Virus record (IMG/VR): IMGVR_UViG_3300010429_000387
Coordinates: 64,001-128,000 of that record
Source: a virus
Taxonomy: Duplodnaviria > Caudoviricetes
Strand: one strand, 5' to 3'
Length of the DNA stretch: 64,000 nucleotides
Positions 1,179-14,973 of the stretch are shown here, one piece after another. Within the stretch, counting starts at the first letter, position 1. Each line of letters opens with the position of its first letter. The notes beneath the pieces were generated by a model that was not told the DNA's origin, did not search any database, and saw only the letters and a list, made by a program, of their open reading frames with translations. The position numbers and the translations under genes are program-made.

Positions 1179-1246
1179 GGGCGAATGCCAGTGTCAGGAC
1201 TACATTCATTTGGAGAACCATGTCTTGACCACACCTCTTGTCGCCC
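1179..1246 (+). ncRNA. Y-RNA-like scaffold copy 1 (minimal)
   Basis: GGGCGA-ATG...TCAGGAC-TACAT...GTCTTGA...CTTG-TCGCCC. Confidence 0.7.
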
Positions 1247-1251
1247 CCTAT

Positions 1252-1323
1252 GGCCTCGTCTGCTAACGGTAGGCAAGCTGATTCTCAATCAGCAAACGGT
1301 GGGTTCAACTCCCCCCGAGGTCA
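1252..1323 (+). tRNA. tRNA-Glu(CTC)
   Basis: GCTGA-TTCTCAA-TCAGC. Confidence 0.9.
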
Positions 1324-1327
1324 CTAC

Positions 1328-1398
1328 GGCCCCATCGACTAACGGTAGGTCACCACCCTTTCAAGGTGCGGATACGGGTTCAATTCCCGTTGGGGTCA
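1328..1398 (+). tRNA. tRNA-Glu(TTC)
   Basis: Loop CTTTCAA, cloverleaf. Confidence 0.9.
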
Positions 1399-1421
1399 CC
1401 CTCTCGGTGTCATCTACCCTC

Positions 1422-1607
1422 ATGCCGACCTACGAGTACAAATGCAAGGCGTGTGAGAAGACCTGGGAGCAGGACCAGAGCATCAAGGAGCCCCCGGCCA
1501 AGGACTGCCCTCATTGTGGCAAGCCAGAGGCCCAAAGGCTCATCAGCGGAGGGGTCAACTTCCAGCTCATGGGTGGAGGTTGGTCCGGTGAGGGGTACTC
1601 GAAGTAG
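1422..1607 (+). CDS. FmdB-family zinc-ribbon protein
   Basis: MPTYEYKCKAC...CPHCG...RLIS...F..GGGW signature; start moved to ATG 1422. Confidence 0.85.
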   Translation: MPTYEYKCKACEKTWEQDQSIKEPPAKDCPHCGKPEAQRLISGGVNFQLMGGGWSGEGYSK

Positions 1608-1618
1608 GAGGTCGCAAG

Positions 1619-1804
1619 ATGCCCGAGAACGAGTTCACCTTGGTACCCAGGCTTGAGGAGACTGAACCGGAGCCGACCGAAGAAGACCTCCGAAGAATGG
1701 AGGAACACAGGCGTCGGATGGATGAGGAGAGGCGTCTTGCCATCGAGGCAGGGGAGCGGCTACCCCCTCTGAACGGGGAACTGCTCTGGCCCACGAAGGA
1801 CTGA
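1619..1804 (+). CDS. hypothetical protein (acidic, 61 aa)
   Basis: AGGAGG RBS, phage-like codon usage. Confidence 0.65.
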   Translation: MPENEFTLVPRLEETEPEPTEEDLRRMEEHRRRMDEERRLAIEAGERLPPLNGELLWPTKD

Positions 1805-1807
1805 TGT

Positions 1808-1889
1808 GGCTGGGTGGCGGAACGGCAGACGCAGGGACCTTAAAATTCCCCGCCCTTGTGGCGTGAGGGTTCGACTCCCTCTCCAGCTA
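1808..1889 (+). tRNA. tRNA-Leu(TAA)
   Basis: Leu-type D-loop, loop CTTAAAA, variable arm. Confidence 0.85.
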
Positions 1890-1895
1890 CCCCAT

Positions 1896-1971
1896 GGTCA
1901 GATAGCTCAGACGGTAGAGCACTTGACTGAAAATCAAGGTGTCACCGGTTCAACTCCGGTTCTGACCACCA
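1896..1971 (+). tRNA. tRNA-Phe(GAA)
   Basis: CTTGA-CTGAAAA-TCAAG, ACCA. Confidence 0.92.
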
Positions 1972-2109
1972 AACAACGAATGAATGAGAGACTAGCCCAG
2001 AGCCTTGATGTGTGAGATCGAAAGAGGGGTTACCCTCTTCTCATAGTGGCTTGACTGGCACTTAGAAGGGCTCCTACTCTGGCCGTCTTTCAATCACTTG
2101 TCGTTGTTT
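1971..2109 (+). ncRNA. Y-RNA-like scaffold copy 2 (CTCATAG-hairpin cargo)
   Basis: AAACAACGA-ATG...TGAGAGAC...GTCTTTCA...CTTG-TCGTTGTTT. Confidence 0.65.
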
Positions 2110-2112
2110 TCT

Positions 2113-2186
2113 AGGCCGGTAGCTCAGTTGGTTAGAGCGCACGCCTGATAAGCGTGAGGTGTCCAGTTCAACTCTGGAGCGGCCTA
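2113..2186 (+). tRNA. tRNA-Ile(GAT)
   Basis: CACGC-CTGATAA-GCGTG. Confidence 0.92.
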
Positions 2187-2188
2187 CC

Positions 2189-2259
2189 CTGACGAATGCC
2201 AGTGAGGAGTACATTCACTGAAAATGAAAAAGCCCTCTTCACATCCCACTTGTCGTCAG
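2189..2259 (+). ncRNA. Y-RNA-like scaffold copy 3 (Phe anticodon-hairpin cargo)
   Basis: CTGACGA-ATG...GTGAGGAG-TACA-TTCA-CTGAAAA-TGAA...CTCTTCAC...CTTG-TCGTCAG. Confidence 0.7.
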
Positions 2260-2264
2260 AACTT

Positions 2265-2352
2265 GCTCGGATGCTGGAATCTTGGCAGACAGCACCGGCT
2301 GAGAACCGGTGGCCCTAGTGGTGTGGGGGTTCAAGTCCCCCTCCGAGCACCA
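2265..2352 (+). tRNA. tRNA-Leu(GAG)
   Basis: ACCGG-CTGAGAA-CCGGT, ACCA. Confidence 0.9.
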
Positions 2353-2353
2353 T

Positions 2354-12852: not shown

Positions 12853-12856
12853 CTAT

Positions 12857-12929
12857 TGCAGCAACCTGAGGCAGGAGGCGGGCTTCATAAGCCTGACCAG
12901 GTAGGGTTCGAGTCCCTCTGCTGCAACCA
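12857..12929 (+). tRNA. tRNA-Met/Ile2(CAT), atypical
   Basis: CGGGC-TTCATAA-GCCTG, ACCA; weak D-arm. Confidence 0.7.
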
Positions 12930-12930
12930 T

Positions 12931-13005
12931 GCGGGGTTCGCTTTCAGGGAGAGCATCTGCCTTACAAGCAGAACCAGGTGGGTTCGAGTCCCACACCCCG
13001 TACCA
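12931..13005 (+). tRNA. tRNA-Val(TAC)
   Basis: TCTGC-CTTACAA-GCAGA, ACCA. Confidence 0.88.
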
Positions 13006-13006
13006 T

Positions 13007-13089
13007 CGGCATGTGGCGGAATGGCAGACGCCCCAGATTTAGGCTCTGGTGGGAGAAATCCCGTGGAGGTTCGAGTCCTCTCATGCCGA
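13007..13089 (+). tRNA. tRNA-Leu(TAG)
   Basis: CCAGA-TTTAGGC-TCTGG. Confidence 0.9.
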
Positions 13090-13148
13090 CGAAAGGTGGG
13101 TACCAAGGTGAAATTCAAGATACAAAGGCCGAGTCTCAGCACACTTTC

Positions 13149-13219
13149 CCGTGTGTGGGGCCGGTCGCCTCAGGAGTTCCTATAAAGCTCTGATCCTGGT
13201 TCAACTCCAGGCACACGGA
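13149..13219 (+). tRNA. atypical tRNA-Ile(TAT)-like gene
   Basis: CCGTGTG/CACACGG, 6-bp anticodon stem GGAGTT/AGCTCT, loop CCTATAA, 3-nt variable loop. Confidence 0.6.
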
Positions 13220-13227
13220 CAGAAAAT

Positions 13228-13301
13228 GCGGGGCGAGCAAGCTGGTGAAAGCACCACCTCGACAAGGTGGCCCCCGATGGGTTCGATCCCCATGCCCCGT
13301 A
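13228..13301 (+). tRNA. tRNA-Val(GAC)
   Basis: CCACC-TCGACAA-GGTGG (C33). Confidence 0.8.
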
Positions 13302-13325
13302 CCGGTGTACATATCGACAGAGGAG

Positions 13326-13871
13326 ATGAAGATGAAGACCACTGGATACGCCCTCCGAGAGGCGATCAAACAGCATGAGCTTCGCCGGGACACGGCAGCC
13401 AGGGCCTTCCAAGGCTCCCTGAAGGCGTTTCCTGGTGAGGATAAGGAGACCCCCGTCCAGGTGGTCGATGCTTTCCTGAAGGCAGAGCAATCCATCGCCA
13501 AGCTCCAGACGGCTCAGGCTCGCTACAACCTCACCGTGAGGGTAGAGGTGGCGGGGCTCGGGCACTACCTTGGGGACAAGACCACCATCACCCTTTCCGA
13601 GGCCATCAAGAGCATCGGAGGGATCGCTCGGGCGGAGAAGATGTGGAGGTCCGCTGCTGGACCGAAGCCCGACCGCTATGGTGGGTACCGTGACAATGAG
13701 GATGAACTCGACCCGACCAAGGTCCGGTCGAAGGCAACCATCACCGCCTCCAAGGCGGTTGAGCTGGCGTCCCTCGTAGCCAAGCGAGCAGGCTCCCTCA
13801 GGGCTGCCATCGCTACGGCCAACGCTCGGGAGGTCGAAATCGAAGACTTGGACCCGACACTCTTTGAGTAG
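13326..13871 (+). CDS. helical/coiled-coil hypothetical protein (possibly DIP1984-like)
   Basis: GAGGAG RBS; Ala-rich helices, ITLSEAI, IATANA..V pattern. Confidence 0.7.
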   Translation: MKMKTTGYALREAIKQHELRRDTAARAFQGSLKAFPGEDKETPVQVVDAFLKAEQSIAKLQTAQARYNLTVRVEVAGLGHYLGDKTTITLSEAIKSIGGIARAEKMWRSAAGPKPDRYGGYRDNEDELDPTKVRSKATITASKAVELASLVAKRAGSLRAAIATANAREVEIEDLDPTLFE

Positions 13872-14077
13872 TCGGGACGAGACAGGACTTCGGTCCTGTT
13901 GGCGAAGGGGCACCAATCAGTTGGCGTGGAGACACGCTGGAACGGAATCGGGCTAGCGAAGGCTTCCTAAGGCACTCAGTTCCTCGACCAGGCGTCATGC
14001 CGGGATGAAGAGGCAGCCACCGAGCTTATTCGTTTTCACCCGGAGCCACATCTTGCTCCTGTTTCCCTTCGCCTTTT

Positions 14078-14111
14078 CGGGGGCTCTCAGTGAAAGCTGG
14101 GAGCCCCCGTT
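14078..14111. terminator. GC-rich hairpin between convergent genes
   Basis: CGGGGGCTCTCAG-TGAAAG-CTGGGAGCCCCCG. Confidence 0.6.
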
Positions 14112-14117
14112 CCCTAT

Positions 14118-14747
14118 CTACTCGCCCTTCTTGATGATCTGGATTGAGTCCAGGATCCGGTTGACCGTGTAACCACAGTCCTTGAGATCGTACTTCCGAC
14201 GGGTGATGATGTCTTCGTTGGCGAGGGGGTCATCCTTGGCAAGGGCTGCGATCATCTCGGCTGCCTTCAGGTTCTCCCGAGCCATCTCGACCAGCTCGGA
14301 AGCAGCCTCCTTGATCTCACCCATCTCCTTCGAGTAGTCCCCACCCATGGCCTTCATGAGGTCATCCAGGACGCTCTGGGGGATGTACTTGGAGGGGCTC
14401 TTGAAGTCCTCCAGGGAGAGTCCCTCGACTCTGTGGAAGCCGACTCCCCGCTGACCCTTGTTGGCCGTGGTCCGGACGCTGTAGCTTCCAGCTCGGTCTT
14501 CCCAGGCCACATGAATCTCTACCGAACACTGGGTACCTCGGTTTTCATCCCGGTAGGCGAACCAGCGGTAGTCCACCGTATTGTACCACTCCTTGACGAA
14601 GGTCGAGGGGTCAAACTTCATCCCCGTCTTGTCGGAGAGGTACTTGGCGATGATGGCTTTCCCACGTCCCATCAAGCGATTCAATGCAGAGACGTTGGGG
14701 TTCTTCGGCCCGGATGCGGCGGTCACGGTTCGGTCATAGTCGTGCAT
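14118..14747 (-). CDS. hypothetical protein
   Basis: GAGGA RBS before MHDYDRTVTAA; 209 aa. Confidence 0.7.
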   Translation of the reverse strand: MHDYDRTVTAASGPKNPNVSALNRLMGRGKAIIAKYLSDKTGMKFDPSTFVKEWYNTVDYRWFAYRDENRGTQCSVEIHVAWEDRAGSYSVRTTANKGQRGVGFHRVEGLSLEDFKSPSKYIPQSVLDDLMKAMGGDYSKEMGEIKEAASELVEMARENLKAAEMIAALAKDDPLANEDIITRRKYDLKDCGYTVNRILDSIQIIKKGE

Positions 14748-14787
14748 TGCTGGTCCTCTTCGTCGGGCTTTCAACAAGAAGATTTTC

Positions 14788-14864
14788 GCTCAGGTGGTGG
14801 AATCGGCAGACACGCTGGTCTCAAAAACCAGTGCCCTTGTGGCGTGAGGGTCCCTCCCTGAGCA
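14788..14864 (+). pseudogene. tRNA-Leu(CAA) with deleted T-loop
   Basis: CTGGT-CTCAAAA-ACCAG intact, but the T-arm is GAGGG-T-CCCTC. Confidence 0.7.
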
Positions 14865-14907
14865 CAAAGTTGGTTGAAGGGTCTTTCACCCCGGTGTACA
14901 GTAGGGA

Positions 14908-14973
14908 GGCCCTTGAATGAACTGTGGAACTACATCGCAAACGTTCGTTTCACAAAACGCCTTGTCATGGGCC
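14908..14973 (+). ncRNA. Y-RNA-like scaffold copy 13 (minimal)
   Basis: GGCCCTTGA-ATG..TGTGGAAC-TACAT...GTTTCACA...CTTG-TCATGGGCC. Confidence 0.7.

Follow-up and report, generated by a model that had tools for sequence, protein, structure and literature searches.

Elements and tRNA genes at the locus

The window analysed here is a stretch of 64,000 nucleotides, bases 64001–128000 of the 407,078-bp IMG/VR virus record IMGVR_UViG_3300010429_000387 (labelled G000), in which direct terminal repeats are present. Close to its beginning lies a tRNA island in which twelve short elements, Y1 to Y12, and one decayed copy, Yp, are interleaved with tRNA genes (Table 1). The original prediction, made from the sequence alone, had described these loci as one family of Y RNA-like genes, each with a constant handle for the protein Ro60/Rsr and a swappable cargo. 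Reading of the sequence and folding of each candidate recovered all twelve loci and the decayed copy on the plus strand with the single layout that had been claimed. From 5′ to 3′, this consists of an outer stem, an AUG loop, an inner stem, the tetranucleotide UACA, a variable cargo, the second strand of the inner stem, a CUUG loop and the second strand of the outer stem.

The outer helix of the handle comprises 6–9 bp and terminates in GA/UC. It is followed by an asymmetric internal loop with AUG-M-M on the 5′ side, which begins with AUG, and C-CUUG on the 3′ side. The inner helix (GGAS/SUCU; 7–9 bp) has a 5′ strand ending in GGAC or GGAG, contains a conserved G–U pair and is capped by UACA. 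As predicted, AUG and CUUG occur in all twelve copies and UACA in eleven, the exception being Y2 with UAGC; the core RAAUG is likewise present in every copy, and each outer stem that had been listed pairs as stated. The cargo, expected to range from about 10 to 240 nt, does vary widely in length, but the measured limits are 16 and 249 nt. The partial copy reported at 7764 exists in the decayed form of Yp.

Table 1. Position and main properties of the tRNA island and of the Y elements in the window. R2, score of the handle model; fold z, z-score of the single-sequence fold.
Feature	Position	Strand	R2 (bits)	Fold z	Description
tRNA island	156..15337	+			47 tRNA calls (ARAGORN) and tmRNA, every one on the + strand; ARAGORN and Rfam
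Y1	1179..1246	+	52.9	−2.1	minimal, 68 nt; outer stem GGGCGA/UCGCCC; 21-nt cargo
Y2	1971..2109	+	26.3	−4.1	92-nt non-tRNA cargo; UAGC for UACA
Y3	2189..2259	+	57.8		minimal, 71 nt; between tRNA-Ile and tRNA-Leu
Y4	2354..2493	+	47.2	−3.7	cargo of two long hairpins; 5′ motif AAAUG
Y5	2572..2735	+	48.2		YrlA-type: T arm, 21-bp closed acceptor-like stem, D arm
Y6	2783..2889	+	51.4		partial tRNA-like cargo: T arm and short hairpin, without D arm
Y7	3402..3698	+	29.4		249-nt structured cargo opening with a stretch like 23S rRNA 1910–1942
Y8	3787..3940	+	37.9		YrlA-type; T arm and closed acceptor read from the sequence
Y9	4655..4794	+	32.6		YrlA-type; directly 3′ of tRNA-Arg(cct)
Y10	7556..7684	+	39.0		handle around ordinary-order (non-permuted) tRNA-like domain; 6-nt anticodon loop
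Yp (decayed copy)	7764..7838	+		−0.5	outer stem and AAAUG kept, UACA and CUUG lost; hairpin + UCUCAUAG module present
Y11	8381..8483	+	58.5	−3.7	three hairpins, the first with T-loop-like loop (UUCGAUU)
Y12	14908..14973	+	30.9		minimal; 12 nt ahead of the tmRNA gene; one U–U mismatch in outer stem

Whole-element MAFFT alignments (A1–A4) placed the 3′ strands wrongly. A covariance model was therefore seeded from three copies of the same geometry (A5), and the other copies were aligned by Infernal (A7, A8). The handle model used throughout, R2, was rebuilt from 15 matches of the seed model and contains phage copies only; default filters were applied because copies with long cargo were lost with the search filters off. 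In the window, R2 found exactly the twelve elements (26–58 bits) and nothing else, while Yp was not recovered at E ≤ 1. A whole-genome pass returned nine of the twelve, all within the tRNA island and none elsewhere. Even the 5′-motif pattern without a pairing requirement was enriched, with 11 matches in the 14-kb island versus 8 in the remaining 393 kb (both strands). As a control, R2 was run on unrelated viral sequence, 691 kb in total, that had been picked for the presence of the 5′ motif; one match resulted. A scan of IMG/VR by the 5′ motif alone was unspecific (one true handle among 80 loci) and served only as a control.

Ro60 gene and related phages

The original prediction had noted that no Ro60/TROVE gene lies in the window and had proposed to look for one in the remaining genome. 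The window indeed lacks such a gene, and a full-length Ro60/Rsr gene was found 24 kb upstream of it: a 566-codon open reading frame at G000 38948–40648 (+), the single TROVE match of the genome. The protein matches Pfam vWA_Ro60 (1.5e-18) and TROVE (3e-9), and among solved structures it is closest to D. radiodurans Rsr (2nvo; 8e-25, residues 33–551, near full length). With R2 no handle match was obtained around Ro60 in the stretch L006, which reaches from 9 kb upstream to 1.4 kb downstream of the gene. A weak match to the YrlA model 3 kb upstream of Ro60 (19.2 bits, E 0.04) was rejected; it overlaps coding frames and was not recovered by R2. About 2 kb upstream of Ro60 lies an ADP-ribosylglycohydrolase gene (PF03747, 1e-72; L006 5868–6812 (−), corresponding to G000 35868–36812), and a homologue of the CCA-adding enzyme/poly(A) polymerase family is encoded outside the window at G000 389908–390279 (−) (PF01743, 1.2e-37; 508-codon frame).

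Relatives of the phage were found through Ro60, namely the IMG/VR jumbo phages G001 (512 kb, 61% identity) and G002 (363 kb, 53%) as well as Myxococcus phage Mx1 (41%). G001 contains eight and G002 fourteen copies of the handle; within each record they are confined to the syntenic tRNA island. A complete relative of 435 kb, G004, carries at least seven copies with its Ro60 gene 25 kb away, so that arrays co-occur with Ro60 in three related jumbo phages (G001, G002 and G004). At the site syntenic to Yp, after tRNA-Thr(ggu), G002 has an intact copy. Five other Ro60-encoding phages have one or two YrlA matches each, and in an unrelated 57-kb IMG/VR phage, G005 (IMGVR_UViG_3300021062_000017), R2 found a single handle (L032 9777–9908 (−), 42.4 bits).

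Mx1 encodes Ro60 together with two handle copies in its tRNA region. One of these (OR576727.2 45521–45624, corresponding to L008 616–719; 37.3 bits) has a T-arm-like cargo, follows directly after tRNA-Ile and sits under the coding sequence WNM70101.1, annotated as 'hypothetical protein'; the second is located at 45169–45294. The copy at 45521–45624 is probably a Y RNA gene that has been annotated as a protein. In G002 a further arrangement was seen at L004 10104–10381, where a 5′ half-handle lies upstream of tRNA-His and a complete Y element after it. The 3′ end of this element has two successive CUUG-stem motifs, one of which is complementary to the upstream half-handle. This suggests nested or alternative pairing around tRNA-His.

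Pairing of the handle is maintained at the level of the RNA

The covariation test proposed in the original prediction was carried out on 33 copies from three related phages. Standard pairs are formed by 98.0% of the stem cells, and 12 of the 14 pairs show changes on both sides, that is, compensatory exchanges. The covariation score was 0.826 compared with 0.223 after shuffling of the partners, a value of 0.826 being reached in none of 500 shuffles, and it fell to 0.08–0.15 with slid partners. As this alignment is fitted to the model, a separate pairing count based on our own parsing was made as an independent check: the 3′ strand of the same copy pairs at 3.93 of 4 variable outer positions, whereas a foreign 3′ strand pairs at 1.95 of 4. 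One pair of the inner stem is G–U in 26 of the 33 copies, which corresponds to an A–C mismatch on the opposite strand, and the pair adjoining UACA is C–G in 20 and G–C in 12 copies. Every copy is oriented as the tRNA genes. The G–U pairs and the uniform orientation indicate that selection acts on the plus-strand transcript and not on the DNA, in line with the earlier proposal of an RNA module of the protein-binding type instead of a DNA repeat.

Multiple copies with terminal inverted repeats, confined to a single region and accompanied by one decayed copy, might also be expected of DNA-level repeats with no function as RNA, such as mobile elements of the miniature inverted-repeat kind or sites at which recombination reshuffles tRNA genes. 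However, the outer stems differ in each copy yet remain complementary, an outcome that the spread of a repeat would not give. Furthermore, the conserved G–U pair and many other G–U pairs are functional only in a plus-strand RNA, all copies share one orientation, and the sequence between the arms is unrelated among paralogues but kept in orthologues. This explanation is therefore very improbable.

Similarity of the handle to the Rsr-binding module of YrlA

A scan of 16 kb with the Rfam model of the bacterial Y RNA YrlA (RF02553) gave matches over the full 114 positions for Y5 (41.5 bits, E 2e-6, model positions 1–114), Y9 (34.2 bits, E 3e-4) and Y6 (25.6 bits, E 0.09); the other nine copies had no match to this model. 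Matches that span model positions 24–88 only were found on tandem tRNAs, a known type of false positive, and were discarded. The Rfam model Deinococcus_Y_RNA had no meaningful match, its sole hit (20.8 bits, E 9.9) being on tRNA genes outside the elements.

In the cmscan alignment of Y5, the motifs ATG, TACA and CTTG fall on CgaAUG, GgaaCUAc and AcUuGucG of the YrlA consensus. GAAUG, ACUAC and ACUUGUC of Y5 are placed on conserved letters and enclose the T arm, the closed acceptor-like stem and the D arm. The layout of the Rsr-binding module of YrlA, a closing helix, a 5′ loop with AUG, a second helix, CUA and a 3′ ACUUGUC, was observed in all twelve elements and is supported by the covariation. 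The kink nucleotides 23UA24 are conserved in YrlA (bioRxiv 10.1101/312249), and the conserved UA of the phage handle fits them.

Cargo classes

The cargoes fall into several classes. Y5, Y8 and Y9 are full tRNA mimics of the YrlA type, with a T arm, a D arm and a closed acceptor-like stem but no anticodon loop. A partial tRNA-like effector is present in Y6 (T arm only) and in Y11 (T-loop-like hairpin). Y10 contains a pseudo-tRNA in ordinary order; one of the 47 ARAGORN calls, reported as tRNA-??? at 7582–7653, falls within this element and scores 37.3 bits with the Rfam tRNA model. Y1, Y3 and Y12 are minimal hairpins, while Y2, Y4, Y7 and Y11 carry other structured domains. The six copies without a tRNA-like effector (Y1, Y2, Y3, Y4, Y7 and Y12) resemble partners of the YrlB type and not YrlA. 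Some of the tRNA-like arms are shared with tRNA genes of the phage: the D arm of Y8 is identical in 20 of 20 nt to the D arms of tRNA-Leu(gag) and tRNA-Leu(tag), and the T arm of Y6 in 18 of 18 nt to that of tRNA-Arg(gcg).

The T arm preceding the D arm in Y5, Y8 and Y9, which is the permuted order, the identity of the Y8 D arm with tRNA-Leu and the ordinary-order domain of Y10 could alternatively point to tRNA genes in permuted or split form whose products become functional tRNAs. Genes of that kind should have a reconstructable anticodon stem–loop and free acceptor ends, and neither was found. In the permuted copies the anticodon stem–loop is missing and the handle occupies its place, the acceptor stems are closed by a loop and extend up to 21 bp, and the anticodon loop of Y10 has 6 nt. 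Moreover, eight of the twelve copies lack a full tRNA-like domain, and six of these have no tRNA-like arm at all. Maturation into working tRNAs is hence extremely unlikely.

The types of Y1, Y3, Y5, Y7, Y9 and Y11 recur beside equivalent tRNAs in the related phages with a conserved design of the cargo. For Y1, whose minimum-free-energy fold recovers the two-stem handle, the outer stems of the G001 and G002 orthologues differ, with compensation of the changes. The Y3 orthologue in G001 comes after tRNA-Ile, and those of Y5 in G001 and G002 after tRNA-Phe, with compensatory changes within the long stem. Y9 has an orthologue in G001 that is also located after tRNA-Arg(cct), and orthologues of Y2 follow the equivalent tRNAs in G001 and G002. 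The cargo design of Y11 is kept in the G001 copy (L005 3782–3883); by reading of the sequences it is also kept in G002 (L004 14189–14293), although the computed pairing matched that copy to Y10. Conservation of the same cargo types at equivalent tRNAs, while Ro60 is only 53–61% identical, suggests that each cargo has a use of its own and is not filler.

Orthologues of Y7 are located at L005 13630–13855 (−), L004 8503–8722, L131 2005–2275 and L135 5236–5444, and a conserved core is common to the five. Its cargo begins with a stretch (window 3428–3460) that matches positions 1910–1942 of E. coli 23S rRNA, from the H69 loop to H70, over 21–33 nt. For this type, blastn gave 21/21 identical nucleotides with the G001 orthologue (E 2e-7), an nhmmer profile E 1e-5, and Smith–Waterman comparison z-scores of 7.3 and 5.6; the match of the window copy itself is weak (27 nt, 78%, E 0.16). 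Likeness to 23S rRNA beyond 1910–1942 was seen with a lenient alignment, looked like noise and was dismissed, so that the claim is limited to the 21–33 nt. An Rfam search of the Y7 cargo matched no family; the remainder of this cargo, some 200 nt in all, is a conserved and structured domain. For Y2, a 14-nt match to 23S rRNA 2100–2113 (z 3.4) was not beyond chance after multiple testing.

A hairpin + UCUCAUAG module (AAAGRGGG-loop-CCYUCUUCUCAUAGWGG) occurs three times, at window 2020–2050, 3617–3648 and 7788–7818, only within Y2, Y7 and the decayed copy. It is missing from the Y7 orthologues of G001 and G002, as if it had been inserted in the G000 phage.

Position relative to the tRNA genes

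The elements abut the tRNA genes closely. Nine of the twelve start −2 to +1 nt from a tRNA 3′ end and eight stop 2–12 nt before the next tRNA or the tmRNA; Y1, for instance, begins 1 nt after tRNA-Met and ends 5 nt ahead of tRNA-Glu. The same pattern was observed in the relatives. Promoter-like and terminator-like sites were no commoner than in shuffled sequence. A precedent for tRNA-linked processing comes from D. radiodurans, where Yrn2 arises from a polycistronic precursor shared with tRNA-Asp and Yrn1 (PMC4201824). The abutting tRNA genes thus suggest a release of the elements through tRNA processing. They would probably be co-transcribed within polycistronic tRNA precursors, with tRNA 3′-end processing setting them free on the upstream side and RNase P, cutting the following tRNA, on the downstream side.

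The handle at bacterial rsr loci

The nearest cellular relatives of the phage Ro60 are 49–53% identical and were found in Acidobacteriota and Polyangiaceae metagenome-assembled genomes and metagenomic contigs (4–5.4 Mb). Six rsr loci were surveyed, a non-systematic sample: two of Acidobacteriota (L146 and L147), one of Polyangiaceae (L144) and three on contigs (L142, L143 and L145). Although R2 contains no bacterial sequence, it gave four to eight matches on the rsr strand in all six loci, most of them in tandem directly beside rsr, and two of these matches (71.2 and 70.7 bits) exceed the gathering score of YrlA. In the bacterial copies the canonical GGCGAAUGCC, GACUACAU and YUUGUCGCC are present, and the strict motif GNCGAAN0-1G is nearly universal. 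Three loci also have arrays of 17–24 tRNA genes, with RtcB near in two of these, whereas L144 and L147 have no tRNA genes within the fetched stretch. Clustering of the handle with rsr in bacteria, together with the canonical motifs, indicates that the phage handle is a diverged version of a module accompanying rsr.

The bacterial islands resemble the phage array in the handle itself, in the presence of several copies (four to eight per locus) and, in three loci, in the tRNA arrays. They differ in that the bacterial copies flank rsr directly and have nearly uniform outer stems, whereas the phage array is larger, lies apart from Ro60 and is more diverse in both outer stems and cargo. No published description of bacterial islands combining tRNA arrays, rsr and Y RNAs was found in the literature searched.

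These loci also bear on another explanation, by which the handle is a processing or stability cassette of tRNA operons, recognized by a host or phage endonuclease or protecting spacer RNAs and unrelated to Ro60, with the cargoes as passengers. It would account for the location of the elements exactly between tRNA genes and far from the Ro60 gene, and for the very small cargo of Y1, Y3 and Y12. On the other hand, the handle matches the Rsr-binding module of YrlA position by position, the same handle clusters beside bacterial rsr even where the fetched stretch has no tRNA genes (L144 and L147), and the cargo types are individually conserved. We therefore consider a cassette of this kind improbable.

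Further features of the tRNA island

At window 3947–4020, ARAGORN calls a tRNA (Rfam tRNA 45.7 bits) whose anticodon, CUGG, has four bases and whose anticodon loop measures 8 nt; it may have a role in quadruplet decoding or of the frameshift-suppressor type. Two tRNA-like sequences, at 14788–14864 and 4132–4217, were seen by Rfam and not by ARAGORN; one of them scored 42.6 bits with the tRNA model, the second 40.5 bits with the tRNA-Sec model, below its gathering score. Five unassigned gaps of the island (653–932, 4218–4290, 7839–7930, 8484–8777 and 13872–14117) fold considerably better than shuffles of the same mononucleotide composition (z −3.8 to −6.1) and may represent further small RNAs.

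Probable assignment to the YrlA/YrlB lineage

The homology of the handle and its covariation, the presence of a Ro60 gene, the link to rsr and the close neighbourhood of tRNA genes make it likely that the twelve loci are a paralogous family of bacterial-type Y RNA genes of the YrlA/YrlB lineage, which would supply one Ro60 with differing adaptors. From these observations we infer expression, processing, Ro60 binding and a division of labour among the cargoes. The original prediction held in essence that bacterial-type Y RNAs had diversified into a family in which the Ro60 handle is constant and the effectors can be swapped; this is largely supported by the computational evidence, in particular by the YrlA matches, the Ro60 gene, the rsr-linked handles and the conserved cargoes.

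Several observations weigh against this assignment. The elements (G000 65179–78973 (+)) are on the same strand as Ro60, 24.5–39 kb downstream, and hence lie outside the neighbourhood required by Chen et al. 2014 (PMC4201824), which extends 4 kb from Ro60 on the same strand. The search with the YrlA model, which had been proposed together with the prediction, was positive for three copies over the whole model, but none of the elements reached the gathering score of 69 bits, not even Y5. A full tRNA-like domain is missing in two-thirds of the copies (8/12), and the z-scores of the single-sequence folds are modest in some (−1.2 to −2.5). The strict GNCGAAN0-1G is preserved in three of the twelve only (Y1, Y3 and Y6), which is explained by the diversification of the outer stems. 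G005, despite its handle, has no vWA_Ro60 match; this phage may rely on the Rsr of its host. Searches of the phage genome, which the prediction had also suggested for RtcB, found neither RtcB nor an RNase PH/PNPase homologue, so that any effector would be host-derived or of another kind.

Comparison with known Y RNA systems

YrlA and YrlB have been described in Salmonella Typhimurium and Mycobacterium smegmatis (Rfam RF02553; Chen et al. 2014, PMC4201824; structure 6cu1, bioRxiv 10.1101/312249). Like YrlA, the phage elements have a terminal helix formed from the RNA ends with GAAUG, CUA and CUUGUC, Ro60/Rsr is encoded in the same genome, and Y5, Y8 and Y9 contain the tRNA-like effector (T arm, D arm and closed acceptor). 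The minimal phage copies are similar to YrlB, a partner Y RNA without a full tRNA-like domain. In contrast to YrlA and YrlB, the phage has twelve paralogues instead of two, which are interleaved with 47 tRNA genes at a distance from Ro60, and it is unlike them also in the diversified outer stems, the scarcity of the strict motif and the scores below the gathering score. The ordinary-order pseudo-tRNA and the domain of about 200 nt with its look-alike of H69–H70 are cargoes not described for Y RNAs.

Yrn1 and Yrn2 of D. radiodurans are modular Y RNAs that tether Rsr to PNPase. Both are destabilized in Deinococcus when Ro60 is deleted. They differ from the phage family in belonging to another sequence lineage and in forming groups of two to four RNAs beside rsr, not a dozen in a tRNA island.

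Among phages, Thermus phage phiLo encodes Yrl1 and Yrl2, and its Ro60 binds these RNAs and forms complexes with host PNPase in vitro (PMC12135203). Chen et al. 2014 report 22 Ro60 phages, including mycobacteriophages, CcrColossus and Bacillus phage G (PMC4201824). The present phages share with them a phage-encoded Ro60 accompanied by Y RNA-like genes. However, in phiLo and the phages of Chen et al. the Y RNAs adjoining Ro60 are reported to number one or two, whereas the present clade has from at least 7 to 14 in a tRNA island, with conserved cargo classes. More generally, in the published bacterial and phage cases considered here, between one and four Y RNAs accompany the Ro60 gene at its locus. 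The published pipelines required a distance of at most 4 kb from Ro60 and removed matches among tandem tRNA genes (PMC4201824), and searches with this rule and this filter miss such arrays. No paper joining tRNA arrays with Ro60 or Y RNAs was found in the literature searched. Thus, phage Ro60 with Y RNAs and Y RNAs with tRNA-like domains are already known, while the size and diversity of the family, its location in a tRNA island far from Ro60, and the types of cargo, along with the connection to bacterial islands of tRNA arrays and rsr, are new.

Proposed function

According to the mechanism that we propose, each transcript would pair its 5′ and 3′ ends into the handle, to which, as suggested by its sequence, the phage's own Ro60 would bind. 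Interchangeable effector modules would occupy the position above the handle, several of them being kept as separate orthologue groups in the relatives. Most likely, the family would serve to load the single phage Ro60 with different Y RNAs, each of which would gate Ro60 or connect it with another partner or another class of structured RNA, with roles mainly in surveillance, decay or repair of tRNA and rRNA in infection. By analogy with Yrn1–PNPase and with phiLo, the cargoes may steer or gate Ro60 towards different partners related to tRNA or the ribosome.

A more far-reaching proposal is made only tentatively, and we regard it as possible but rather doubtful. It holds that the jumbo-phage clade possesses a programmable Ro60 platform of a dozen adaptor RNAs with separately conserved mimics of translation RNAs, comprising tRNA mimics partly derived from phage tRNA arms and a domain whose beginning copies the segment from the 23S H69 loop to H70. 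Each adaptor would steer Ro60 to, or decoy, a different host factor acting on tRNA or the ribosome, for example anticodon nucleases, rRNA-cutting toxins, modification enzymes or exonucleases, and the whole system would have been co-opted from undescribed bacterial islands of tRNA arrays, rsr and Y RNAs.

A set of 12–14 paralogues with one handle and distinct modules, each conserved separately, represents a natural experiment, and comparing the partners of these paralogues could reveal the function of the effector half of Y RNAs. Myxococcus phage Mx1, with Ro60 and two copies of the element, one of them annotated as a protein, offers a cultured system for such tests. The arrays also link Ro60 systems to tRNA gene arrays in phages and bacteria alike.

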